Assembly: GCA_965213625.1 (NCBI GenBank) | Contig: CBDBZU010000004.1 | Span: 3,552,001 to 3,616,000 of the forward strand | DNA: 64,000 nucleotides | Direction: 5' to 3' | Source of the DNA: a bacterium | GTDB lineage: Bacteria; UBA8248 | Part shown: positions 27,225 to 61,806 of the stretch, piece by piece | Layout of the letters: each line of letters starts with the position of its first letter | Numbering within the stretch: position 1 is the stretch's first letter | Notes under the pieces: model-generated | What the model was told of the DNA's origin: nothing | What the model saw: only the letters and a program-made list of their open reading frames with translations | Database searches by the model: none | Program-made: the position numbers and the translations under genes

Positions 27225-28007
27225 ATGCGGCGCACCCTCGTGGCCGGCAACTGGAAGATGAACAAGACGATTGCAGAGGCGAGAACGCTCGCGCGCGAGG
27301 TGGCCGGAAGCGTCGCAGGGGATGGACTATCCGATGTGGAAGTCCTGCTGGGACCCCCCTATCTCGCCCTTTCGGCGGTCGTGGAAGCGGTCTCGGGGAG
27401 CGCCGTCGGCGTCGCCGGGCAGGACTGCGCCCACCAGGCCGATGGCGCATACACCGGCGAGGTGAGCGTCTCGATGCTCCGGGATGCGGGCGCGACCCAC
27501 GTCATCCTCGGGCACAGCGAAAGGCGCGAGTTGATGGGAGAAGGCGACGGCCTCGTTGCCCGCAAGGCGCAGGCGGCGAGCGCGGGCGGCCTCACCCCCA
27601 TCATCTGCCTCGGGGAGCCTTTTACGACGAGGCGGGCCGGAACGACGCTCACGCGCATCGCCCACCAGGTCGAGCACTCGATTCAGGGCGCGTTCGGCTC
27701 TCCACCTCCGGGGGGTTTCATCGTCGCGTATGAGCCCGTGTGGGCCATCGGCACGGGCCTCACGGCCACGCCCGAACAGGCCCAGGAGGCGCACGCCTTC
27801 ATCCGCGAGCGTCTGGAAGGAATTTTCGGCTTGGAATGCGCGCAGGAAACGCGTATCTTATACGGTGGCAGCGTGAAACCGGATAATGCCGCGAATTTGT
27901 TCGCACAACCCGACATCGACGGCGGCCTCATCGGCGGGGCGAGCCTGAACAGCGCAGACTTTTTGGAAATCATCCGCGCCGCGCGGATGGATTCCGCACT
28001 GACATGA
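27225..28007 (+). CDS. tpiA: Triose-phosphate isomerase
   Basis: AGNWKM, GHSERR, AYEPVWAIGTG, LYGGSV, LIGGASL. Confidence 0.98.
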   Translation: MRRTLVAGNWKMNKTIAEARTLAREVAGSVAGDGLSDVEVLLGPPYLALSAVVEAVSGSAVGVAGQDCAHQADGAYTGEVSVSMLRDAGATHVILGHSERRELMGEGDGLVARKAQAASAGGLTPIICLGEPFTTRRAGTTLTRIAHQVEHSIQGAFGSPPPGGFIVAYEPVWAIGTGLTATPEQAQEAHAFIRERLEGIFGLECAQETRILYGGSVKPDNAANLFAQPDIDGGLIGGASLNSADFLEIIRAARMDSALT

Positions 28008-48954: not shown

Positions 48955-50474
48955 GGGTCTGTTGAAAAACCCGGTGTTGGAAGCGGGCGTTTTGGCGGCT
49001 CACGCGGCGGCGGGGAGGCAGCCCAATCGGCGCGTGAGGGCGCCATGTGCGCGCAGCCGGCGTCTCCGGGCGGCACAGGCCGTCCAGAAGGCGAATATAC
49101 GCGCCGCAAAAGCGGCGGCCAGCCGCTTGAGGTTCACCGCTATCGCCGTCAGGTAGGACTGGATCCGCATGTTCGCAAGGCCCCGGCGCACCGCCCGCCC
49201 CAGTCCGTGCCGGCTCTTCGCCTCGCCGTGGTAGCCCTCCGAGCGCCAACGGTGGCGGCCATAGAGACGCTTCTCCTCCTCCCCCCAGCGCGCATGCCGC
49301 CGACGCGCGCGCAACAGCGCCGGATACGCGTGCGGAATCAACACCGTCCTGCTCGTGCGCGACTTCGACAGACAATCGGGCCTGAGCGCGCAGCCCGCGC
49401 AATCCCGCGTCTTCGATACATAGGAGCGCCCCCGCTCCGTCGCCTGCCGGGGGCGCAGCGTCTTGCCTCCCGGACACTTCACCACCTCGTTGCGCGCGTC
49501 GTAGTGGAACAACTGCAGCGGAACACGGCTCTGGCTGGGTTCCTTCTTCGCTGGTATCAGCGCTTCCACGCCCCGCCGCTCCAATTCGCCGTAAACCTTC
49601 GAGTACGCGTACCCCGAATCCGCCGTCACCATCTCCGGCGTGCGGCCCGACAACTCGCTTACCGCCTCTATATGGGACGCCATCATCTCACGCTCGTTCC
49701 GCGTCCCCTCCGTCACCGACACGTCGAGAACAACACCCCGCTCATCGTCCACCGCCGCGTGCTGCTTGTAGCTCGGCTCGAACCCCGCCCGCGCGCTCTT
49801 GCGCGCAAGCCGCGCGTCCGGGTCCGTCCGGCTCACCGGACCCCCGCCACCGCGGCCTCCTCCCTTCTTCCCGACCTCATCATCGACGGGATTCTCCTGA
49901 ATCACCTTCTCCGCGTGGTGCGCCGCCAGGCTCTCCCAGCTCACGTCCGCGCGTATCAACGAGGCGTCCACGTGCACCACTTCCCCCTTCGCCACATTCG
50001 CCTCCAGGCAAGCCTGCACCGTGCGACGGAATATCTCCTTGAACCGTGCCTCCCCCCAGCGCTGACGTATCCGCGTCAGGCTCGAATGATGCGGCAACTC
50101 CTCGTGCAGCCCGTACCCGATGAACCACCGGATCGCCAGGTGCGCACGCGCCTCGCGAAGCAGGCGACGGTCGTGAACGTAGCCCAGCAACATACCCGCC
50201 AGCATCAAGCGGAGCGCCACCTCCGGGTCGATCCCCGGACGACCGTTATCCGCGCAATAGCAATCCGCCACCTCCTCCCGTAGCCAGCTCAAATCCAGTA
50301 CGTGGTCCACGCGCATCAGGACGTGATCCTCGGGGATCAGCCGTTCCAGCGAACCGGCCACGAACAAATCCATCTGCTCGCGCCTCTTGCTGCCTATCAT
50401 CGAGGGAACTCCCATCTCGGGCGAGATAGTGTCATTACACCCAATCACAATGCCGGGGCTTTTTCAACAGCCCC
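48955..50474 (-). mobile_element. IS1182-family insertion sequence, copy 3 (1520 bp)
   Basis: IRs gggtctgttgaaaaa / tttttcaacagcccc; flanks ttgag and ctcaa. Confidence 0.92.
49000..50400 (-). CDS. IS1182-family DDE transposase
   Basis: Close paralog of 5008-6408. Confidence 0.92.
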   Translation of the reverse strand: MIGSKRREQMDLFVAGSLERLIPEDHVLMRVDHVLDLSWLREEVADCYCADNGRPGIDPEVALRLMLAGMLLGYVHDRRLLREARAHLAIRWFIGYGLHEELPHHSSLTRIRQRWGEARFKEIFRRTVQACLEANVAKGEVVHVDASLIRADVSWESLAAHHAEKVIQENPVDDEVGKKGGGRGGGGPVSRTDPDARLARKSARAGFEPSYKQHAAVDDERGVVLDVSVTEGTRNEREMMASHIEAVSELSGRTPEMVTADSGYAYSKVYGELERRGVEALIPAKKEPSQSRVPLQLFHYDARNEVVKCPGGKTLRPRQATERGRSYVSKTRDCAGCALRPDCLSKSRTSRTVLIPHAYPALLRARRRHARWGEEEKRLYGRHRWRSEGYHGEAKSRHGLGRAVRRGLANMRIQSYLTAIAVNLKRLAAAFAARIFAFWTACAARRRRLRAHGALTRRLGCLPAAA

Positions 50475-51201: not shown

Positions 51202-51687
51202 CTAGAAGTCGCCCTTCTCCTGCAGGTAGGGAATGAGGCCGCCCGCCTCGATCATCGACCAAAGGCCGTCGGGGAACGGTGGGAAGGTAATCGTCTCATC
51301 GCCGGCGCGGGCCTCGCCCGCCATGGGGTCCACTTCTATCTCATCGCCCGCCTGGATGGTGTCGGTATCGCAGGCGATGACAGGCAGCCCCGAATTGATG
51401 GCGTTTCGGTAGAACATGTGCCCGAAGCTCTTCGCGAGCACGCAGCTTACCCCGAGTTCCCTGAGCACGACGGCGGAATCCTGACGGCTGCTGACGAGGC
51501 CAAAGTTCTCCCCCGCCACCAACACGTCGCCTTGCTGCACCTTTTCCGAGAATTCAGGGTCGATTTCCTTGAAGGCGTCGCGCTTTAATTCCTCCAGCGT
51601 AGTGCCCGGCGAGCGGTATTTGACGGACAGATGCACGTCGGTGCTGATGTCGTCCCCGAAGCGGTGTACGCGTCCCCTCATCTCCAA
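51202..51687 (-). CDS. Aconitase-family dehydratase small subunit (LeuD/HacB-like)
   Basis: FGDDISTD, AGENFG.SSR, AKSFGHMFYRNAINSG. Confidence 0.88.
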   Translation of the reverse strand: MEMRGRVHRFGDDISTDVHLSVKYRSPGTTLEELKRDAFKEIDPEFSEKVQQGDVLVAGENFGLVSSRQDSAVVLRELGVSCVLAKSFGHMFYRNAINSGLPVIACDTDTIQAGDEIEVDPMAGEARAGDETITFPPFPDGLWSMIEAGGLIPYLQEKGDF

Positions 51688-51727
51688 AACGTAATCCTCC
51701 TTGCCGTGTGCGCCATCCTCGCAGGCC

Positions 51728-52984
51728 CTATAAAAATTCCCTGGGGTCGGTGATGCGGCCCGTCACGGCGCTCGCCGCCACCGTGGCAGGTGAGCCTAGA
51801 TAGATTTCGGCCTCCTTGCTGCCGAGCCTGCCGGGGAAATTCCGGTTCGCGGAAGATATGGCGCGCTCCCCATCGGCGAGACAGCCGTTTCCCGTCATCG
51901 AGGCGCACGGCCCGCAGGCGGCGGTGAGCACGGCGGCCCCCGCTTCGGCCAAAGCCCCGATGGCTCCGCTCGCTGCGGCGGCCTCGTAAATTTTCTTGCT
52001 CGTGGGCGCGACATAGAATCGAACGCCCGGCGCGATTTTTCTACCGCGCACGATCTTAGCCGCGATCTCGATGTCCTCGAGCCTTCCGTTCGTGCAGGTG
52101 CCCACGAACGCCTGCTGGACGGGAAGGCCCGCGTAGTCCTCTACGGGATGCGCGTTCCCCGTGGCGGGAGGAGCGGCCACGACGGGCGTGAGCGCAGAAA
52201 TATCGAGATGGATTCTCCGGGCGTATACGGCGTCCTCATCCGGCGCCACCGCCCCATCCACGGGCGCGCCGTGCGCCCGCGCCCAGTCGAGCGCCTTCTC
52301 GTCCACCTCCATGACGCCCGTCTTCGCCCCCATGTCGACCGACATGTTCGCGACCGTGAAGCGCGCGTCCATCGAGAGGTCGGCGAGCGCCGCGCCGCCG
52401 TATTCCACCGCCATGTAGTTCGCGCCGTTCTCACCCATCTCGCGCGCGAGCGTCAGTTCCATATCCTTCGAGAACACGCCGTGGGCGAGCGCGCCGGTGA
52501 ACTCCACGCGAACGCTCTCGGGCGTCTTGAACCACAGCTTGCCGGTGGCGTAGGCGGAGGCGATCTCCACGCTCTCCACCGCCACGCCCATCGCGCCCAG
52601 CGCCCCGTATGTGCAGACGTGGCTGTCGCCCCCCACGGTGAGCGCGCCGGGGCCCACGCGGCCCTCTTCGGTCACCACGGTATGGCAGACGCCCGCGCCC
52701 GGCTCGAACACCTCGACGCCGTGCTCCTCGCCGAAGATTCTCAGCTTCTTGTGGTGGTTCGCCCAGAGAACGTCCTGGGCGGGGACGAAATGATCGATGA
52801 TGAAATCGGTCTTCTTCGGGTCCATCCGGAACTCGAAGCCGGCTTCACGGAAGATGTCGACCGCCTTCGGCCCCTTGGCGTCGCCCGCCATGACGTAGTC
52901 GAGCTCTGCGATTACCAGATCGCCCGCCCTGGCCTCGCTTCCTGAGTGCGCGGAGAGGATTTTCTCCGCCATCGTCTGACCCAC
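51728..52984 (-). CDS. Aconitase-family dehydratase large subunit (LeuC/HacA-like)
   Basis: QTMAEKIL, IDH, GVCH, DSHVCTYGA, GTCTNGR, CGPC, NRNFPGR. Confidence 0.9.
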   Translation of the reverse strand: MGQTMAEKILSAHSGSEARAGDLVIAELDYVMAGDAKGPKAVDIFREAGFEFRMDPKKTDFIIDHFVPAQDVLWANHHKKLRIFGEEHGVEVFEPGAGVCHTVVTEEGRVGPGALTVGGDSHVCTYGALGAMGVAVESVEIASAYATGKLWFKTPESVRVEFTGALAHGVFSKDMELTLAREMGENGANYMAVEYGGAALADLSMDARFTVANMSVDMGAKTGVMEVDEKALDWARAHGAPVDGAVAPDEDAVYARRIHLDISALTPVVAAPPATGNAHPVEDYAGLPVQQAFVGTCTNGRLEDIEIAAKIVRGRKIAPGVRFYVAPTSKKIYEAAAASGAIGALAEAGAAVLTAACGPCASMTGNGCLADGERAISSANRNFPGRLGSKEAEIYLGSPATVAASAVTGRITDPREFL

Positions 52985-53020
52985 GGTGTTCTCCTTGCTG
53001 TATTCCGTAAAGCGATTCAC

Positions 53021-54728: not shown

Positions 54729-55277
54729 TTACTCATCAGGTCGGTGGCGCGAAAGGGCACGAGAGAGGATGTCGCGCGCAGGCCCTGAGCCGTCGAGTGC
54801 GCGCAGTTTTCTGCTCTTTATTTTCCAGCCCTCCGGCGTGCGCGTAAGCTCCCAGCGGTTGGCGAGGACGCGGTGGATGCGGTAGCCGGTGGAGACGCCG
54901 TGGTTGGGCAGTTCGCGCTCCTCACCCTCGGCATCCGGGTGGATGAGCTGCAGGTAGGAGGTGACGCAGGCCGTGTCGCCGTCTAGTTCGACGTGCGGCA
55001 GGCCAGCGAAGTGGGCGAGGCCGCCTTCGATCGCCTCTTGATGCGCGGGCCTTTGGGTAATGGCGGCGATGGCCTCGTTCCCGAGCGTGTAGTCGAGGCT
55101 CTCGCCCCGGTCGAATATGCCCTCCTCGGTGAAGACGGCGCGGGTGTAATCGTCCGCGCCGGTGTCCGCACTCGGTGGATGCGAAGCTATCAAGTTGTAG
55201 ATTTCGAGCCTGTCCTCGATATCGCGCAACCGCGCTTCGAGCGATGCGGCGTCCGGCGCGCTTTCGGCGTCTGTCAT
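54729..55277 (-). CDS. SnoaL/NTF2-like protein
   Basis: LEARLRDIEDRLEIYNLIA, VFTEEG, VELDGDTA, RTPEGWKIKSR. Confidence 0.85.
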   Translation of the reverse strand: MTDAESAPDAASLEARLRDIEDRLEIYNLIASHPPSADTGADDYTRAVFTEEGIFDRGESLDYTLGNEAIAAITQRPAHQEAIEGGLAHFAGLPHVELDGDTACVTSYLQLIHPDAEGEERELPNHGVSTGYRIHRVLANRWELTRTPEGWKIKSRKLRALDGSGPARDILSRALSRHRPDE

Positions 55278-55379
55278 GTCGTCTCTCCCCCGGTGATGGA
55301 ATGTGGGATGAGTATATCGCAAATTTCGGACGTGGTTCCTCCATGGCCGGATTTCATCCTGTGGGGGCGCGTTCCTCCC

Positions 55380-55570
55380 TTGAGCGTTCGGGCATCCCGA
55401 GTGGCATGCCCGATGAAAAAGACCTCTTATTTAGAGAGTAGAGGGGCCGCCCCTCTCGACTGGAACGGCAACCCCCCTACCCCCCCCCTTGTCAGGGGGG
55501 TAAAGACGATGCCCCCCGACGATGGGGTGAAAGAAAAGCCCCCTGAGGAGGGGGGTAAGTGGGGTTGGTA
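55380..55570. repeat. REP-like cluster
   Basis: gggcatcccgagtggcatgcccgatgaaaaag (cf. 8822-8857); cccccccttgtcagggggg (cf. ~4806-4824). Confidence 0.6.
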
Positions 55571-55867
55571 GGTGGCGGGGTTCCTCCTTTCGAGAACAGC
55601 AACCCCTCCCTCCCCGGTTTGATTCCGAATAGTCTCCTCCGCATTAACCCTCATTTGCGCATATCGCGCGTGAAGCAATTTTCGCTACACTGGCGCGCAA
55701 GGTTCGCCGTCCGTGGCGGTTCGACAACTTGCGGGCGGGGGCGTTTCGGGAGAGCATCGAGATGGGAGCAGAAGGAAGGACGATGTGTCGAAGAGGTGAT
55801 GATTTGAGGACTTCGAACAGGGTTTCCCGAACGAGGTTCGCAGGCGCAAAGAGCCCACTCTGAATTC

Positions 55868-56027
55868 CTGAAAATATCGATAAATATAGATAAATTCACG
55901 GGGTTTTTCGGTAAATTGCTGTAAATTAATTTTTGGGGATATGACGGCCGGGGGCCGCGACGCAGGGGAATTTTGCCATGGCCCGCACCTTCCGCGATAA
56001 CGGCAAATGCGGGGAGCTGCGGGGGTG
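55868..56027 (+). repeat. ~160-bp dispersed intergenic element, copy B
   Basis: Aligns with the reverse complement of 1558-1718. Confidence 0.85.
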
Positions 56028-56106
56028 GATGCGCTTACAGTGAAAAATACGCGCAGGCATCATAACCGGCTGATAATTAACGGGTTTCTCGAAGAAGGAG
56101 AGCGTT

Positions 56107-56469
56107 TTGGACTGGATAGGAGTGGGACTCTTGGTGCTGGGCGCCATCGTGGGCACGCTCAACGCGGCCACAGGCGTGGGCTGGGGCATCATCATGATGC
56201 CCGTGCTCTTCCTCATCCCCGGGCTCACGCCCCAGCAGGCGGTGGCGGTGTCGATTCTCGCCTACCTGTTCAACTCGCTGGTCGCCTCGTTCGAGAACGT
56301 GCGAGGCGGGCTAATCGTTTGGAATTACGCGGTTTATCTCAGCATCGGGGCCATCATCGGTGGGGTCCTGGGCGCGCATCTGCTCCAGACATTCTCGGCG
56401 CTGACGCTCAAGAGAATCGTGGGCGTCGTTGTGATCGGCGCAGGCGCGAGCCTGCTCATCAACCGCTGA
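56107..56469 (+). CDS. Half-size TauE/SafE (TSUP) family membrane protein
   Basis: GVGWGIIMMPVL, QAVAVS, GAIIGGVLGA; 120 aa; RBS aaggag before TTG. Confidence 0.8.
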   Translation: MDWIGVGLLVLGAIVGTLNAATGVGWGIIMMPVLFLIPGLTPQQAVAVSILAYLFNSLVASFENVRGGLIVWNYAVYLSIGAIIGGVLGAHLLQTFSALTLKRIVGVVVIGAGASLLINR

Positions 56470-56472
56470 GAA

Positions 56473-56502
56473 GAAAACCCCCCGTCAATGACGAGGGGTT
56501 TC
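56473..56502. terminator. Probable (bidirectional) intrinsic terminator
   Basis: gaaaaccccccgtcaatgacgaggggtttc hairpin between convergent genes. Confidence 0.6.
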
Positions 56503-56605
56503 ATACTGCTTGCCCCTTATAGGCTTCCGACTGTCATCGCAGAGTAGATAAAGCACACGAAATCAGCGATTTAACGTAATCTGTTTCATGCGATACATCG
56601 GTCGG

Positions 56606-56746
56606 CTATCCCAGCAGCTTCCTCTTCATCCAGCCCAAAGCCCGCGCCACGGCGGAGAACAGCCCGCCCACTCACGTGGGGCAGGCCGCTTGTTCCGGCG
56701 GCGTTTGGCCCTTATCGTGAATCTTCTCCTGCGTGGGGTTCGGCAT
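56606..56746 (-). CDS. Putative 46-aa selenoprotein with CPTU motif (absent from ORF track)
   Basis: MPNPTQEKIHDKGQTPPEQAACPT-UGA-VGGLFSAVARALGWMKRKLLG-UAG; ATG only 3 nt after the DUF971 stop, purine-rich RBS; UGA at 56674-56672. Confidence 0.6.
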
Positions 56747-56749
56747 GAT

Positions 56750-57103
56750 TCAGCCCTTTCCTCCCTGCGAGCTTTCGTCGCGCCCGGGGGCGATATCGTA
56801 AAGATAATCAAACGAATAGATGCCCGCGCCGCAGCCGCCCCGCCAGATGAAATTAATGGCGTAGCGCCCCACCATCTCCACGTTCTCGAGCTCTGTCGGT
56901 CCACTCGGCCCCGAGAGGACGGCGAGGGGGTTTTTCTCGCGCTCCTTGCGCTCCTCCTTGCAGTTCGCGCACGGGCAAAGGGCCGCGAGATAATCGAAGC
57001 CGTAGGCGCTCTTCTCCCCGCTCGCCCACTCGACGCGAAACTCACGGGCGGGCTTGTCCACCGTGAGATCGACGGGATGGGCCTTTTCGACAGGCGCGCT
57101 CAT
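56750..57103 (-). CDS. DUF971 (GBBH-like N-terminal) protein
   Basis: LCPCANC, VGRYAINFIW, GIYSFDYL. Confidence 0.88.
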   Translation of the reverse strand: MSAPVEKAHPVDLTVDKPAREFRVEWASGEKSAYGFDYLAALCPCANCKEERKEREKNPLAVLSGPSGPTELENVEMVGRYAINFIWRGGCGAGIYSFDYLYDIAPGRDESSQGGKG

Positions 57104-57137
57104 AAGACGCTGGACTCCTGATGGCGTTTACGGCGCA

Positions 57138-57797
57138 TCATTTCGCCTTCATCCCGTATTTCTCATACTTCTTCGACGAGGAAGAGCTGAGCTTGGCGGA
57201 TTGGGGCGTCTTGAGCTCCAGCAGATAGGGCCGCTCGGCCGAGGTGGCCTTCACGGCGTCCAAGAGCCCCTGCTCATCGCCGTCGCTCTCCCAATCGCCT
57301 TCTTCGAGCTTCACGAAAACGGGCTTGCCCTCCCCGAAATCAAGCGTGGGAACGCCGAAAATGCCCTGCTCGGCCGCGTCCTCATGCTCCTGCGCGATAA
57401 GGGGGATGGTGGCGCCGTTTTTCATGTCCTCCTCCCAGCGATCGACGTCGAGGCCCACTTCCACGGCGATATCGCGCAGAACCAGCTCGCTGGTGATGTC
57501 CTTGCCGTCCCTGTGCCTCGCCCGGTGGAGCGCCACGTGGTACTTGTCGAACTGCGTCTCGCCCTGTAAAGCCGCGCATTTGGCCGCCTGATGCGGTGGC
57601 AGATCCCTGCTCGGGAAAGTCTTATCCTCCCAGGCCTTCCAGTCCTCTCCGCGCGAGGGACCGAAATTCGCCTGCTCGAGCACGAAGGCCTTGTAGTCCA
57701 CATTCAGATCGCTTCTTTTTTCCTGAAGACGAACGAGCCACTCCATGGCCCTGTAGGCGTAAGGTCAGACGTAGCAGTTCCACATGGTGACTTTCAT
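57138..57797 (-). CDS. DsbA/FrnE-like thioredoxin-fold selenoprotein (UGA at codon 11)
   Basis: RBS taaggag, then MKVTMWNCYV-UGA-PYAYRA continuing in frame into the 202-aa ORF (ALHRARH, GIFGVPT cis-Pro); UGA 57767-57765 occupies the catalytic Cys position. Confidence 0.85.
57735..57751 (-). promoter_or_regulatory. Putative bacterial SECIS hairpin
   Basis: GGGCCA-UGGAG-UGGCUC; loop begins 20 nt after UGA and has G at loop position 2. Confidence 0.6.
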
Positions 57798-57908
57798 GAT
57801 TTTCTCCTTAACAAATCGGGGCATAAAGAAACATTGCGCGCCAATCATACACCACAAGAACGCCGATGAAAAAGCAGGGCAAAGTCTTTTGAAAATAGCC
57901 GTTTTTCG

Positions 57909-58508
57909 CTAATTTTCAGGCGTGAGCGCCTTGTTTAACAACGCTTCCGCACCCGCGTTCAAGGAAAGCTCCCTGGCGGCCTCCTGCCCGCGCGGAGACA
58001 TTTTTGCCCAAGTTTTCCGCAAGATGCCGATGATTTTCTCCTCATCATGCAGGCGGGAGAAATCCCAGAAATAGCTTTCCAGAAACACCAGACAGGCGAC
58101 GTCCTCGAGCGTCTGGGTTTCCGGGTCTGTCTTCAAGCCCTTTTTTTTCAACAGCATTCGCACACGGTCTATCGTTTCATCGTCGCAACCAACCTTTTCT
58201 AGAATCTCAGCCGCTTTCTCTCCATGAAAATCATAAAGACGGGTCCGCCATTGGTGATATCCCTTACGGCCCTGGGGGTAATCCGAGCGTGGAATCTCCC
58301 ATCGGCGTATATGTTGGCTCCGCACCGCCAGGCGCAGGGCTTCAGAGGCTTGCGGCTCTATGGTATCTAGCCAGTTCGTCATTCTCATCGAATACAATAG
58401 CTCTTTGGGGTAATTTTCGCCCTCGAAACTCTCGGTATTGGGATCTTCAGAATTCGCCTCATCAATAAGAAGCATAGATTCTACAAAACGTTTGGGGTTT
58501 TCCCTCAT
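57909..58508 (-). CDS. DUF4202 family protein
   Basis: IDEANSEDPN, YSMRMTNWL, RSQHIRRWEIPR, QTLEDVACLVFL, KTWAKMS. Confidence 0.85.
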   Translation of the reverse strand: MRENPKRFVESMLLIDEANSEDPNTESFEGENYPKELLYSMRMTNWLDTIEPQASEALRLAVRSQHIRRWEIPRSDYPQGRKGYHQWRTRLYDFHGEKAAEILEKVGCDDETIDRVRMLLKKKGLKTDPETQTLEDVACLVFLESYFWDFSRLHDEEKIIGILRKTWAKMSPRGQEAARELSLNAGAEALLNKALTPEN

Positions 58509-58588
58509 GATTTCCACCTTCTCAGTTGCAATAGACACAAATAGAATCATTCCAGACAATACTTGTTTAGAATAAACGCTTGTTCGGG

Positions 58589-58644
58589 TTGACAAAAGCA
58601 GGAAAGAAGAATATTTTTCGATATAGTTAAGTAAATTGCTTAAC
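58589..58644 (+). promoter_or_regulatory. Sigma70-like promoter and downstream palindromic operator for the cobA operon
   Basis: TTGACA(58589)-17 bp-TATTTT(58612); GTTAAG-N7-CTTAAC at 58626-58644. Confidence 0.6.
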
Positions 58645-58682
58645 AATAAAAATATAAACTGACCTGGCTACGGGAATCTCTC

Positions 58683-59492
58683 ATGAACCATGGAAAAGTG
58701 CAGATTGTGGGAGCAGGTCCTGGGGATCCGGACTTGCTTACGCTCAAGGCGGCGAAAGCCCTTACAGACGCTGACGTAGTGGTTTATGACCGTCTCGTGA
58801 ACATTGAAGTTCTTGAACTTTGCCCGGAAAACTGCCAACTCATCTATGCGGGAAAATCAAGTGGCCGACACACCATGAGCCAAAATGACATCAACGAAGC
58901 TCTGATCCATTTCGCTCATCGCGGTTATCAAGTGGTGCGTCTGAAAGGCGGGGACCCTTTCGTGTTCGGTCGTGGCGGCGAGGAGGCGCAAGCACTGGCC
59001 GAAGCCGGCGTTCATTTTGAAATCATACCAGGAATCAGTTCCGCTCTGGCCGTGCCCGCCTATGCCGGAATACCCGTCACACACAGAAACTTCGCCTCGT
59101 CGTTCACGGTCGTAACTGCCCATGAAGACCCCGGCAAACCGGAAACACAGGTGGATTATGCGCATCTGGCGAAGAACAAGGGTACGCTCGTTTTCCTTAT
59201 GGGCGCACGCTCCATCGGACGCATATCAGCCGCCCTGATAGATAACGGCATGTCGAAAGACACGCTTGCCGCCATCATTGAAAATGGAACCACAAACAGA
59301 CAATTAGCCTACCGTTGCACATTGGGAGAAGCATCGAGCCTCGCGCAACGCGAAGAAATATCCCCACCCGCAGTTTTTCTCGTCGGACCCGTCGCCGGCC
59401 TTGAAGACCTCGTGTGGTTCGAAGCCGATGAGAGTCAAGAAATCTCCTGGCGCTGTCCCATGGAAAAATCCCTGAGCAAAGCCATTTCATAA
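58683..59492 (+). CDS. cobA: Uroporphyrinogen-III C-methyltransferase
   Basis: VGAGPGDPDLLT, VYDRLV, RLKGGDPFVFGRGGEE, GIPVTHR. Confidence 0.95.
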   Translation: MNHGKVQIVGAGPGDPDLLTLKAAKALTDADVVVYDRLVNIEVLELCPENCQLIYAGKSSGRHTMSQNDINEALIHFAHRGYQVVRLKGGDPFVFGRGGEEAQALAEAGVHFEIIPGISSALAVPAYAGIPVTHRNFASSFTVVTAHEDPGKPETQVDYAHLAKNKGTLVFLMGARSIGRISAALIDNGMSKDTLAAIIENGTTNRQLAYRCTLGEASSLAQREEISPPAVFLVGPVAGLEDLVWFEADESQEISWRCPMEKSLSKAIS

Positions 59493-59560
59493 ATGCCGGG
59501 CTTCAGCCCGGTTCCAGAATTATCATCCAATTAGTACGTAGCTGCTCACGTAAGGAGTAA

Positions 59561-61366
59561 GTGATGCACGAAGAATCACGAAAATCACTGTCTCGGGAAA
59601 CATCGGGCGTCATTCCGGTGATCCCCGAAGAATTCGATGATTTTGAAACACAAGCTACCAGATTCCGTAATGGAGAAATCGATAACGGAGAGTTTCTCCC
59701 ATACCGCCTAAGGCGTGGCGTATATGGCCAGCGTCAGGCGGAAGCACAAATGGTACGCGTGAAAATCCCTTTTGGCGGTTTAAACGCTTCCCAACTCGAA
59801 GCCCTGGGCCGTGTATCGCGAGATTACGCGCCGTTGGGAAAAGGCCACGTAACGACACGGGAAAACGTGCAGTTTCATTTCGTCCCCCTCGACCAGTCCG
59901 CCGAAGTTTTGAGGCTTCTGGGCGAAGTGGGACTAACAACTCGAGAAGCATGTGGAAATTGCGTGAGAAACGTCACCGGCTGCCCCTATGCGGGCGTTTG
60001 CAAGGATCAGGTTTTTGACGCAACACCCTACGCAGGCGGGTTTGCACGTTACTTCGTCCGCAAGGATTTCACACAGGATCTGCCTCGCAAATTCAAGGTG
60101 GCGTTCTCCAGTTGCGCTTCGGACTGCGTGGTCGGCGGAATCCATGATATCGGTTTCATCCCGGTCATCAAGGAGATGGAAGGAACCCCCGTGCATGGCT
60201 TCAAGGTGCTAGTCGGAGGCGGACTCGCCACTTTTGCGCGTACCGCCGAAGTACTATACGAGTTTGTTCCGGTATCCGATTTCCTGAGGGTGAGTGAAGC
60301 CTTAATCCGGGTTTTCGACCAGGCTGCTGAACTCCGCAAATCCCGTTTCAAGGCGCGCATCAAGTTCCTGGTGAGCTGGATAGGAATAGACGGGCTGCGT
60401 GAACGCGTCGAAGAAGAGTTGAAAAAGGACTGGGCAAAAGAACCCGTCAGTCCCGAACCCTATCTTTGGAAAGATGATGAAGGAAGCGACGCTCCACCCA
60501 TCTTGAACACTCTGAACGGAGCGGGGGCTAATCCGAATGGCGACGCGGCGGATTATCACGTTTGGAGAAATACGAACGTCACCGCGCAGAGACAAGAAGG
60601 CTACTTCGCCGTCGAAGTGAAACTACCCTTGGGGAACATCCTTACAGATCAGTTCTTCGCCCTGGCCGACCTCACCCGACGTTTCGCGAGAGGACGAGCA
60701 AGAACGAGTTTCGAGCAAAACCTCGTATTCAGGTGGGTGCGCGCAGGAGAGCTTTATCCCCTGTGGAAAGAACTTCAGCGAATCGGGCTCGCCGAAAAAG
60801 GCGCCCGTGAGATTTCCGACGTGGTCTCCTGCCCGGGAACGGATTCATGCAAACTCGGTATTACCTCCTCCATGGGGCTGGCCAACGCTATTCGTGAAAC
60901 ACTTCATGAAATCGATCAGGACCCTCTCACGCGAGAATTGCACATAAAAATGAGTGGCTGCCCGAATTCCTGCGGACAGCACCACATCGCAAACATCGGC
61001 TTTCACGGGGGGACACTCAGAGCAAACGGCGCAATGCTGCCCGCTTATGAAATTTTTCTTGGCGGTCAATACGAAAATACAGATGGAGAAATCCGAATCG
61101 GCAAACGCATCCAGGTTCGGATTCCCGCAAAACGCGTTCCCGCTGCGCTCAAGAAAATGTTGTCCTACTACCGGGAAAACAGAACTGAGGGCGAGCGATT
61201 CAACGAGTATTTGGATCGCGTGGGCAACGCTTCATTCGAAGACTTGCTGCAGGAATTTCACCTTGCCGGCCAGTTTAATGACGAACCCGATTCTGATTTG
61301 TTCATCGACTGGAGTCAGAAAAAACAATATGTTTTGGAGAGGGGAGAAGGCGAATGTCTAGCCTAG
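59561..61366 (+). CDS. Siroheme nitrite/sulfite reductase hemoprotein
   Basis: GVYGQRQ, TTRENVQ, LPRKFK, CPGTDSC and SGCPNSC siroheme/4Fe-4S ligands. Confidence 0.92.
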   Translation: MMHEESRKSLSRETSGVIPVIPEEFDDFETQATRFRNGEIDNGEFLPYRLRRGVYGQRQAEAQMVRVKIPFGGLNASQLEALGRVSRDYAPLGKGHVTTRENVQFHFVPLDQSAEVLRLLGEVGLTTREACGNCVRNVTGCPYAGVCKDQVFDATPYAGGFARYFVRKDFTQDLPRKFKVAFSSCASDCVVGGIHDIGFIPVIKEMEGTPVHGFKVLVGGGLATFARTAEVLYEFVPVSDFLRVSEALIRVFDQAAELRKSRFKARIKFLVSWIGIDGLRERVEEELKKDWAKEPVSPEPYLWKDDEGSDAPPILNTLNGAGANPNGDAADYHVWRNTNVTAQRQEGYFAVEVKLPLGNILTDQFFALADLTRRFARGRARTSFEQNLVFRWVRAGELYPLWKELQRIGLAEKGAREISDVVSCPGTDSCKLGITSSMGLANAIRETLHEIDQDPLTRELHIKMSGCPNSCGQHHIANIGFHGGTLRANGAMLPAYEIFLGGQYENTDGEIRIGKRIQVRIPAKRVPAALKKMLSYYRENRTEGERFNEYLDRVGNASFEDLLQEFHLAGQFNDEPDSDLFIDWSQKKQYVLERGEGECLA

Positions 61367-61806
61367 AAAAACAATTGGAATTTTTGGACGAGAAGCCTGA
61401 GGACCAGATAAAAACGGCGGTATTGCTCGTCGGTCACGGAAGCCGCGCCCAAAATGCCAACGATGCGCTTTTCCGCGTAGTGAACTATTTTCAAAAGGCG
61501 TGGCCACATCGCATATTGAAGGCGGCATTCCTGGAGATCAGCCCCCCCTCCATTCCCGAAGGAATCGATTTGTGCGTCGCAGAAGGCGCTGAAAGAATCA
61601 TTGTCATCCCTTACTTTCTTTTTCGGGGCAATCACGTGGCAGTGGACTTGCCCGTCTTCATTCAAGAAAGCCGGAGGAAATACCCGGATATCGACGTCAT
61701 TTTGGGTCCTCACCTTGGCTTCCATCCCAAGATGATCGAGATCGTAGATGAACGAATCCAACAAGTTCTCGATACGCTAAAATCCGAGGAGAAGGCGCTC
61801 CCATGA
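61354..61806 (+). CDS. Sirohydrochlorin chelatase (CbiX/SirB, short form)
   Basis: VGHGSR, AFLE, PYFLFRGNH, HLGFHP. Confidence 0.9.
   Translation: MSSLEKQLEFLDEKPEDQIKTAVLLVGHGSRAQNANDALFRVVNYFQKAWPHRILKAAFLEISPPSIPEGIDLCVAEGAERIIVIPYFLFRGNHVAVDLPVFIQESRRKYPDIDVILGPHLGFHPKMIEIVDERIQQVLDTLKSEEKALP

Follow-up and report, generated by a model that had tools for sequence, protein, structure and literature searches.

A conserved three-gene unit predicted to encode two selenoproteins and a DUF971 protein in a bacterium of the UBA8248 lineage

The current study concerns three closely spaced genes on the minus strand of a 64,000-nucleotide stretch of DNA (hereafter the window; part of contig CBDBZU010000004.1, assembly GCA_965213625.1) from a bacterium of the UBA8248 lineage. 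These genes, which encode a DsbA/FrnE-like protein (gene 1), a DUF971 protein (gene 2) and a peptide of 46 residues (gene 3), form a genuine transcription unit predicted to encode two selenoproteins, and the unit is real, conserved and, to judge from RNA-library contigs, expressed. Judged from sequence comparison, the evidence as a whole is best explained by a three-gene, two-selenoprotein unit, and we place the probability of this reading at roughly 80%; that the unit would act as a redox module is a more tentative proposal.

Layout of the unit and decoding of its UGA codons

The minus strand of positions 56300-58200 was read and its open reading frames (ORFs) were listed with TGA translated as U, the symbol for selenocysteine (Sec). 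The listing bears out the close packing that had originally been noted, with intergenic gaps of 34 nt between genes 1 and 2 and 3 nt between genes 2 and 3. It is likewise evident that genes 1 and 3 each contain a single in-frame UGA three codons after a Cys (CYVU and CPTU), as had been claimed. The principal features, including the putative Sec insertion sequence (SECIS) elements, are as follows.

57797..57138, minus strand: gene 1, DsbA/FrnE-like, 219 aa; stop codon TGA at 57140-57138
57767-57765, minus strand: predicted Sec11 of gene 1, in-frame TGA at codon 11, within C-Y-V-U-P-Y-A
57735..57751, minus strand: gene 1 SECIS-like hairpin (GGGCCAU-GGA-GUGGCUC), which begins 13 nt past the UGA
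57103..56750, minus strand: gene 2, DUF971/GBBH-like_N, 117 aa, with C-P-C-A-N-C; stop codon TGA
56746..56606, minus strand: gene 3, selenopeptide, 46 aa; stop codon TAG at 56608-56606
56674-56672, minus strand: predicted Sec25 of the peptide, in-frame TGA at codon 25, within C22-P-T-U25
56641..56658, minus strand: SECIS-like hairpin of the peptide gene, UCCGC-CGUGGC-GCGGG, loop 20 nt after the UGA

A search of the host genome (4.15 Mb in 4 contigs) for Sec machinery recovered all of it, namely selA (505 bits), an adjoining selB (388 bits), selD (333 bits) and one tRNA-Sec with the anticodon TCA. The selD gene (G000:C4:1518852-1519814, plus strand) has one in-frame TGA of its own, so SelD would itself be a selenoprotein. 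Elsewhere TGA serves as an ordinary stop codon: it ends 20 of the 42 long ORFs of the window, including the tpiA-like ORF at 27225-28007, as well as genes 1 and 2, in keeping with the initial view that UGA has not been globally reassigned. Among relatives, the true stops of the three genes vary between TGA, TAA and TAG, and the in-frame TGAs are constant. Both genes 1 and 3 also carry a hairpin just 3' of the UGA with G/U in its apical loop, at a spacing of 13-20 nt. The Sec machinery of the genome, the constancy of both in-frame TGAs from genus to genus and the SECIS-like hairpins downstream of them lead us to read these TGAs as Sec codons, a conclusion drawn at the level of sequence.

Gene 1 and its predicted active site

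The gene 1 product begins M-K-V-T-M-W-N-C-Y-V-U-P-Y-A-Y-R, has no signal peptide and matches the Pfam family DSBA (PF01323) with 64.4 bits vs a cut-off of 25.6. Its residues C8, U11 and C74 are invariant. Among solved structures, it is closest to 7dk9 (E 5.9e-14) and to the FrnE structure 5cnw (E 0.008). When the active sites are aligned (D-F-L-C-P-Y-A in 7dk9, D-I-A-C-P-W-C in FrnE and C-Y-V-U-P-Y-A in gene 1), U11 falls on the first Cys of C-P-[YW]-[AC] and C8 on the conserved Asp, and the position of the second (resolving) Cys of the family, at motif +3, is occupied by Ala. The original description of this site as a CxxU redox motif therefore holds for the presence of a Cys and a Sec, but not for their placement in the CxxC of the family, since Sec stands at the first Cys, Ala at the second, and the upstream Cys at the former Asp. 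Gene 1 is predicted to be a cytoplasmic, single-nucleophile DsbA-fold selenoenzyme with U11 as its nucleophile and C8 as an unusual upstream Cys.

The in-frame TGA is found in 44/44 full-length gene 1 orthologues from a search of 61 genomes, comprising the host genome, members of its genus, family, order and class, and 15 genomes from elsewhere in the domain. The motif C-[YF]-V-U-P occurs in 72/72 fetched loci, many of which are duplicates of the same genomes. A metagenome scan, performed with the pattern M-W-N-C-Y-V-C, which would match a Cys codon, and with a second pattern, yielded 19 loci, 18 of which have an evaluable active site; TGA is present in all 18. No Cys-codon form of gene 1 was encountered among the orthologues, database relatives and metagenome loci examined. 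The 39 database relatives are all at most 204 aa in length, and the active site is missing from each of the 11 that were inspected, 7 of which start at M-E-W directly after it. Given these lengths and the missing active sites, the family has evidently been shortened by gene callers, just as it had been anticipated that standard gene calling would miss the unit.

The hairpin downstream of the gene 1 UGA is well conserved as a structure. Across 41 distinct sequences, 98.6% of cells are paired vs 38-48% when the partner strand is slid. The closing pair is CG in 17, UG in 13 and UA in 11, with none unpaired, and the observed covariation score was reached by 0/500 shuffles.

Two further groups of DsbA-like genes were observed. 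One gene with an in-frame TGA, encoding E-Y-H-U-P-W-A-Y, lies ~39 kb past the end of the window (G000:C4:3654995-3655537, minus strand); it resembles the published DxxUP form and has relatives in other genomes of the genus. The second group is found in the sister family f4 (L049, L052, L053, L054, L055), where the DsbA-like Sec gene has the motif C-Y-V-C-Y-V-U and is not followed by DUF971; downstream of it there is a short hydrophobic ORF that is conserved (M-D-F-L-F...F-R-R-S).

Gene 3 and its SECIS-like hairpin

The product of gene 3, M-P-N-P-T-Q-E-K-I-H-D-K-G-Q-T-P-P-E-Q-A-A-C-P-T-U-V-G-G-L-F-S-A-V-A-R-A-L-G-W-M-K-R-K-L-L-G, consists of a variable hydrophilic N-terminus followed by C22-P-T-U25, a short hydrophobic stretch, W39 and a basic tail. 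It has no match in Pfam, matches 0 NCBIfam families at E up to 0.1, and is absent from a 119-family inventory of selenoproteins (PMC13188914 Table 1). A search with a profile built from peptide alignment A1 detects a single copy in the host genome (69 bits). In 17/17 orthologues examined, the gene begins with ATG, GTG or TTG and is preceded by a purine-rich Shine-Dalgarno sequence. The peptide was originally supposed to be membrane-tethered. This reading was rejected, as a transmembrane anchor needs ~18 or more uncharged residues and only 9-10 follow the U; the best 19-residue Kyte-Doolittle mean is 1.0-1.5 (5 orthologues). By composition, the peptide is predicted to be amphipathic and basic, not a transmembrane anchor.

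Several features point to translation beyond the UGA. Among genus members, the spacing between U and W-M-[KR]-R-K is 13, 14 or 15 codons, and the corresponding indels of 3 and 6 nt keep the frame, which supports translation past this codon. Across genera of differing nucleotide sequence, the same post-U features persist, namely a hydrophobic stretch of ~10 residues followed by a basic residue, W and a basic tail. The C-P-T core has a pN of 0 and a pS of 0.175. In family f2, the peptide of L048 has the variant motif C-H-F-U.

Interchange of UGA and Cys, a proposed check for both Sec positions, was not seen at either: like gene 1, the peptide has no Cys-codon homologue, whether in the phylum genomes, the metagenome loci or 1.84 billion representative proteins. 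The profile search of the latter returned 5 matches, of which one is true, a 46-aa protein (P0042) with W in place of Sec, probably because the gene was called with TGA read as Trp. The other 4 were judged spurious; they are long proteins in which the profile aligns at 6 to 10 separate places, and the 2 inspected ones are repeat proteins in which C-P-T-C-like strings recur.

A stem of at least 5 pairs, whose loop contains GU and lies 20-26 nt past the UGA, occurs in 29/30 unique peptide sequences, as compared to 436/5000 (8.7%) random genome TGAs; as the 30 sequences are related, this comparison does not amount to a probability. In other genera, a stronger hairpin is seen (CUCCUUUC-GGUCU-GGAAGGGG), with a GGUC-type loop. 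The SECIS element of E. coli fdhF also has a loop of this type. Stems differ in sequence between genera, with pair 26-32 being CG in 4 and UA in 4. In addition, coupled S-to-R and R-to-W changes in 4 genus members convert a stem C-C mismatch to G-U and a U-G pair to C-G. The C-terminal codons of the peptide are thus predicted to encode its SECIS element as well, and the coding sequence would be shaped by it.

Gene 2 and its predicted metal site

Gene 2 is the sole DUF971 gene of the genome and matches the Pfam family GBBH-like_N/DUF971 with 64.4 bits vs a cut-off of 22.8. For all three genes of the unit, no NCBIfam model scored above its cut-off. The predicted metal ligands of gene 2 are C43, C45, C48 and C91. 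In an alignment with 3luu (C-P-C-A-E-C ... H), it has both the CxCxxC and a fourth ligand, which is Cys in 17/18 aligned sequences and His in L048 only. Gene 2 is therefore predicted to have a Cys4 metal site, where Cys3His is found elsewhere. A mutant fitness study reports cofitness of DUF971 with Mrp, BolA and YggX and proposes a role in Fe-S cluster maintenance (bioRxiv 10.1101/072470).

Conservation of the unit

The three genes are kept as a unit in 6 genera. Every locus of family f1 has DUF971 after gene 1, and so does family f2; family f4 does not. Profile searches located the peptide in 33/51 genomes of the phylum, each with one TGA-containing copy. These include 21/23 genomes of the genus of the host (g1, the host included), 4/4 of g9, 5/5 of g2 and 1/1 each of g3, g6 and g10. 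The same searches did not find the peptide in g5 (0/4), g8 (0/2), g4, g7 or families f3 and f4; the g7 contig ends right after DUF971. Where the peptide is absent and genes 1 and 2 persist, it follows that genes 1 and 2 can work without it. The expectation that the three ORFs would be linked among relatives thus stands in part, in that the unit recurs in 6 genera, but the peptide is dispensable and a sister family has gene 1 alone. In two loci of the genus (L070 and L087, from genomes G001 and G007), genes 1 and 2 are kept and another gene (M-R-L-S-W-N-E-M-R-A...) occupies the place of the peptide.

In the window and most of the genus, DUF971 and the peptide share a reading frame and are separated by TGA-ATC; even so, 5/20 genus loci have TAA as the DUF971 stop. 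The two frames differ in 5/7 non-genus peptide loci (L036, L039, L040, L041, L048) and in the genus locus L035. These differing frames indicate that the peptide is a separate ORF.

Expression and genomic neighborhood

The following signals flank the unit.

57805..57812 (approximate), minus strand: Shine-Dalgarno-like AAGGAG 5' of the gene 1 ATG, read from the sequence
57844..57872, minus strand: promoter-like TTTTCA-17-TATGAT, a weak consensus match (9/12 positions)
56469..56502, minus strand: intrinsic terminator-like hairpin with a U-tract, ~100 nt 3' of the gene 3 stop

The scan for promoter-like sites found 1 vs 0.4 expected. The terminator-like hairpin (-21.9 kcal/mol, z -4.19, 0/200 shuffles equally stable) was revealed by folding and was not listed by the promoter/terminator scan. 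An Rfam scan of 55000-59500 returned chance-level matches only.

Contigs from RNA libraries (4 runs from 3 studies) map to the unit. One of them, a 1278-nt contig of run X21 derived from a relative with ~90% likeness, spans 56592-57797, i.e. all three genes with nothing upstream, and runs past gene 3. Neither TGA is affected by any of the listed differences, with 112 further differences beyond those listed. Such a contig is not proof of a single transcript, DNA may occur in RNA libraries, and stretches that lack contig cover in runs X19, X20 and X23 carry no evidential weight. The X21 contig ends precisely where the gene 1 start codon begins (57797), which may reflect a short or absent leader, or else an assembly edge.

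A DUF4202 gene precedes the trio in the same orientation, and divergent to this gene are those of a tetrapyrrole methylase, a siroheme nitrite/sulfite reductase and CbiX. In the window, the reductase and the siroheme-synthesis genes (CobA or HemD, CbiX) occupy 58683-61806 (plus strand). A NIR_SIR gene is also located divergently upstream of the trio in L039, L040, L042 and L077 (three further genera; ~2.5 kb flank), and aconitase-family genes are found downstream of the trio in the window (51202-53020), L043 and L077. The neighbors are 4Fe-4S enzymes in several genera, which fits a connection of the unit to Fe-S proteins. Between the trio and the aconitase-family genes, the window has a DDE transposase (49000-50448, minus strand), a SnoaL-like gene (54729-55322, minus strand) and a TauE/SafE ORF (56107-56469, plus strand) that covers only profile positions 1-110 of 237. 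This stretch looks like an insertion; in L043, the aconitase-family genes directly follow DUF971.

Discussion

Based upon the features of the three proteins, a mechanism can be proposed in which they would form a selenol/thiol redox module. U11 of gene 1 would attack an oxidized substrate, be it a disulfide, a sulfenate or a metal-thiolate. The mixed selenenylsulfide would then either be resolved by C8 (or C74) or be handed to the C-x-x-U pair of the peptide, which would serve as a small, dedicated redox partner in trans. The part of DUF971 would be that of an adaptor or client, linking this redox chemistry to the upkeep of Fe-S/metal-thiolate proteins. Such a relay, together with its Fe-S/metal-thiolate targets, is a tentative proposal. 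A bolder version, which we regard as rather doubtful in its entirety, is that the peptide could be the founder of a new class of minimal selenoproteins in which Cys-x-x-Sec caps a cationic amphipathic helix. Here, the peptide might act as a diffusible or surface-bound mediator for the DsbA-fold selenoenzyme and, with DUF971, constitute a dedicated selenium-based repair line for oxidized Fe-S or metal-thiolate sites in a nitrite-oxidizer-like lineage. If true, this would give DUF971 its first biochemical partner.

Several observations weigh against a redox module of two selenoproteins. The peptide is absent from 2/23 genus genomes, two further genera that retain genes 1 and 2, and families f3 and f4, and one genus member (L033) has W-P-T-U for C-P-T-U, which means that the C-U pair cannot be essential in that genome. 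The related sequences are kin and not independent samples, and the neighborhood of Fe-S enzymes may be inherited synteny instead. The hairpins of the window itself are also less impressive than those of its relatives: the minimal gene 1 hairpin has a z of -2.08, with 8/200 shuffles as stable, and the weak peptide hairpin, with its 5-pair stem, has a z of 0.22, with 105/200 shuffles as stable. The 68- and 65-nt stretches after the two TGAs fold like shuffles (z 0.09 and 0.41), and covariation in the peptide hairpin is weak, its score among 10 sequences being reached by 41/500 shuffles. In addition, GCC-GTG-GCG in the peptide gene is invariant at all three codon positions in 18/18 sequences, and conservation of the tail is therefore partly at the RNA level. 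The pN/pS is 0.62 after the UGA vs 0.64 in the N-terminus, so that strong constraint on the protein is not shown; a codon-based selection test is uninformative for this peptide, as RNA constraint depresses synonymous change.

The strongest alternative is metal handling. In this scenario, gene 1 would keep reduced the ligands of the C-P-T-U peptide and of the Cys4 DUF971 protein, both of which would hold a soft metal or metalloid (Hg, Cu, Cd, Zn or selenium itself), and the unit would serve detoxification or trafficking, not Fe-S upkeep. The CxCxxC...C/H metal site of DUF971 is in line with such a role, as is the siroheme nitrite/sulfite reductase that adjoins the unit in the window and in three further genera. 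Siroheme nitrite/sulfite reductases can reduce selenite. Cobalt sensitivity of DUF971 mutants in other bacteria and the naming of DUF971 in a metal-tolerance Tn-seq paper lend further weight, and several CxxU, UxxU and CU selenoprotein families are annotated as metal-binding (PMC13188914 Table 1). However, neither the unit nor its conserved neighbors include a metal transporter, a MerR/ArsR-type regulator or a metal reductase, a comparison of the peptide with Pfam and NCBIfam gives no metal-binding family, and the DsbA fold with its nucleophilic Sec indicates thiol-disulfide chemistry first. We consider metal handling unlikely.

A second alternative is that gene 3 is not read through at all. 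It would then encode a 24-residue peptide ending in C-P-T, or be untranslated, and the sequence downstream of the TGA would be some other RNA element. The hairpin of the window being no more stable than shuffles, the pN/pS of 0.62 after the UGA and the invariant synonymous sites all agree with this possibility, and the Cys-codon homologue that could prove read-through was not found. Conversely, a plain stop would be expected to drift as true stops do, whereas TGA is retained in 33/33 genomes. Frame-preserving indels occur downstream of it, a second conserved stop follows 21-30 codons on, and a hairpin with a GGUC-type loop is located at the usual SECIS distance. This hairpin is not the terminator either, as a strong terminator lies ~100 nt further. 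Failure to read through gene 3 is a highly improbable explanation. The remaining alternative, that the TGAs are assembly errors or pseudogene decay, or that DUF971 and the peptide are one protein produced by stop read-through, draws upon the peptide being in frame with DUF971 across TGA-ATC in the window and most of the genus, but it is refuted by the same TGAs in dozens of independent assemblies and RNA-library contigs, the invariant residues flanking the TGA, the TAA stop of DUF971 in 5/20 genus loci and the out-of-frame peptide in L035 and 5/7 non-genus loci.

With the two-selenoprotein redox module as the preferred reading, a number of implications can be drawn. DUF971, a widespread but biochemically obscure domain, would be tied to a specific redox partner, and its role in Fe-S maintenance would become testable with two small proteins. 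Both the peptide family and the gene 1 form seem to exist with Sec only. The unit also illustrates how such proteins are lost in annotation: the inspected database relatives of gene 1 lack the active site, and the peptide is present once, with Trp at the Sec position. Lastly, the peptide gene would be a clear instance of coding sequence molded by the SECIS element that it contains.

Comparison with known systems

The host is a marine, selenium-rich bacterium. Table 2 of the BSepDB paper names the ten bacteria richest in selenoproteins, and these include metagenome-assembled genomes of the GTDB phylum UBA8248 that have 48-54 such genes each. As the lineage is already rich in selenoproteins, a further one there is no great surprise. 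The combination described here had been presented as undescribed, and we also found no description of it in the literature, the 119-family inventory or NCBIfam. A literature search for DUF971/PF06155/GBBH-like together with selenoproteins, and for UBA8248/Nitrospina selenoproteins, found no description, with one relevant paper lying outside this search. The literature likewise yielded no operon link of DUF971 with selenoproteins, and the text of the BSepDB supplement contains no mention of 'DsbA', 'DUF971', 'PF06155' or 'UBA8248'. In Table 1 of PMC13188914, a PF01323 form with C-x-x-U-P-x-A, a family linked to DUF971 and a peptide of this kind are all missing; judged by their listing in that table alone, the families of Haft & Tolstoy 2025 do not include these proteins. 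The peptide is therefore apparently an undescribed selenoprotein family, and gene 1 is apparently a distinct C-x-x-U-P-x-A form of a known family.

DsbA-like selenoproteins with UxxC have been known since 2005, and a 2026 review of 119 selenoprotein families (PMC13188914) distinguishes two DsbA-like forms of PF01323, form 1 with UxxC and form 2 with DxxUP. Gene 1 shares with these proteins the Pfam domain and a Sec at the first active-site position followed by Pro. However, its C-x-x-U-P-Y-A has no resolving Cys at +3 and a Cys in place of Asp at -3, such that neither published motif is present and U-P is shared with form 2 only. Form 2 is listed as a crotonase-family protein, whereas gene 1 is a stand-alone protein of 219 aa. 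Gene 1 differs further from both forms in always being followed by DUF971 in its family and in having no Cys-form relatives among those found.

The 'DSBA domain-containing protein' 7dk9, for which the literature search found no paper, has the same single-nucleophile C-P-Y-A site. Both it and Deinococcus FrnE have Cys instead of Sec and an Asp at -3, and we know of no link of either protein to DUF971 or a small peptide. FrnE is a cytoplasmic DsbA-like oxidoreductase in which a C-terminal Cys pair helps recycle the active site. This pair is a possible analogue of a redox pair that would be supplied in trans by the peptide. With the DUF971 family (PF06155; 3luu and the C-terminal domain of HCF101), gene 2 shares a domain match above cut-off and the CxCxxC ligands, but its fourth ligand is Cys, where the family mostly has His.

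The peptide resembles SelW-like/Rdx proteins and GrdA in having a CxxU redox motif in a small protein. Unlike these, it has no thioredoxin-like fold domain, is only 46 aa long, and the half that follows its Sec overlaps its own SECIS-like element. As an arrangement, the unit finds its parallel in the grdAB, Tso and SAO operons, which likewise carry several selenoprotein genes per operon that serve one pathway.

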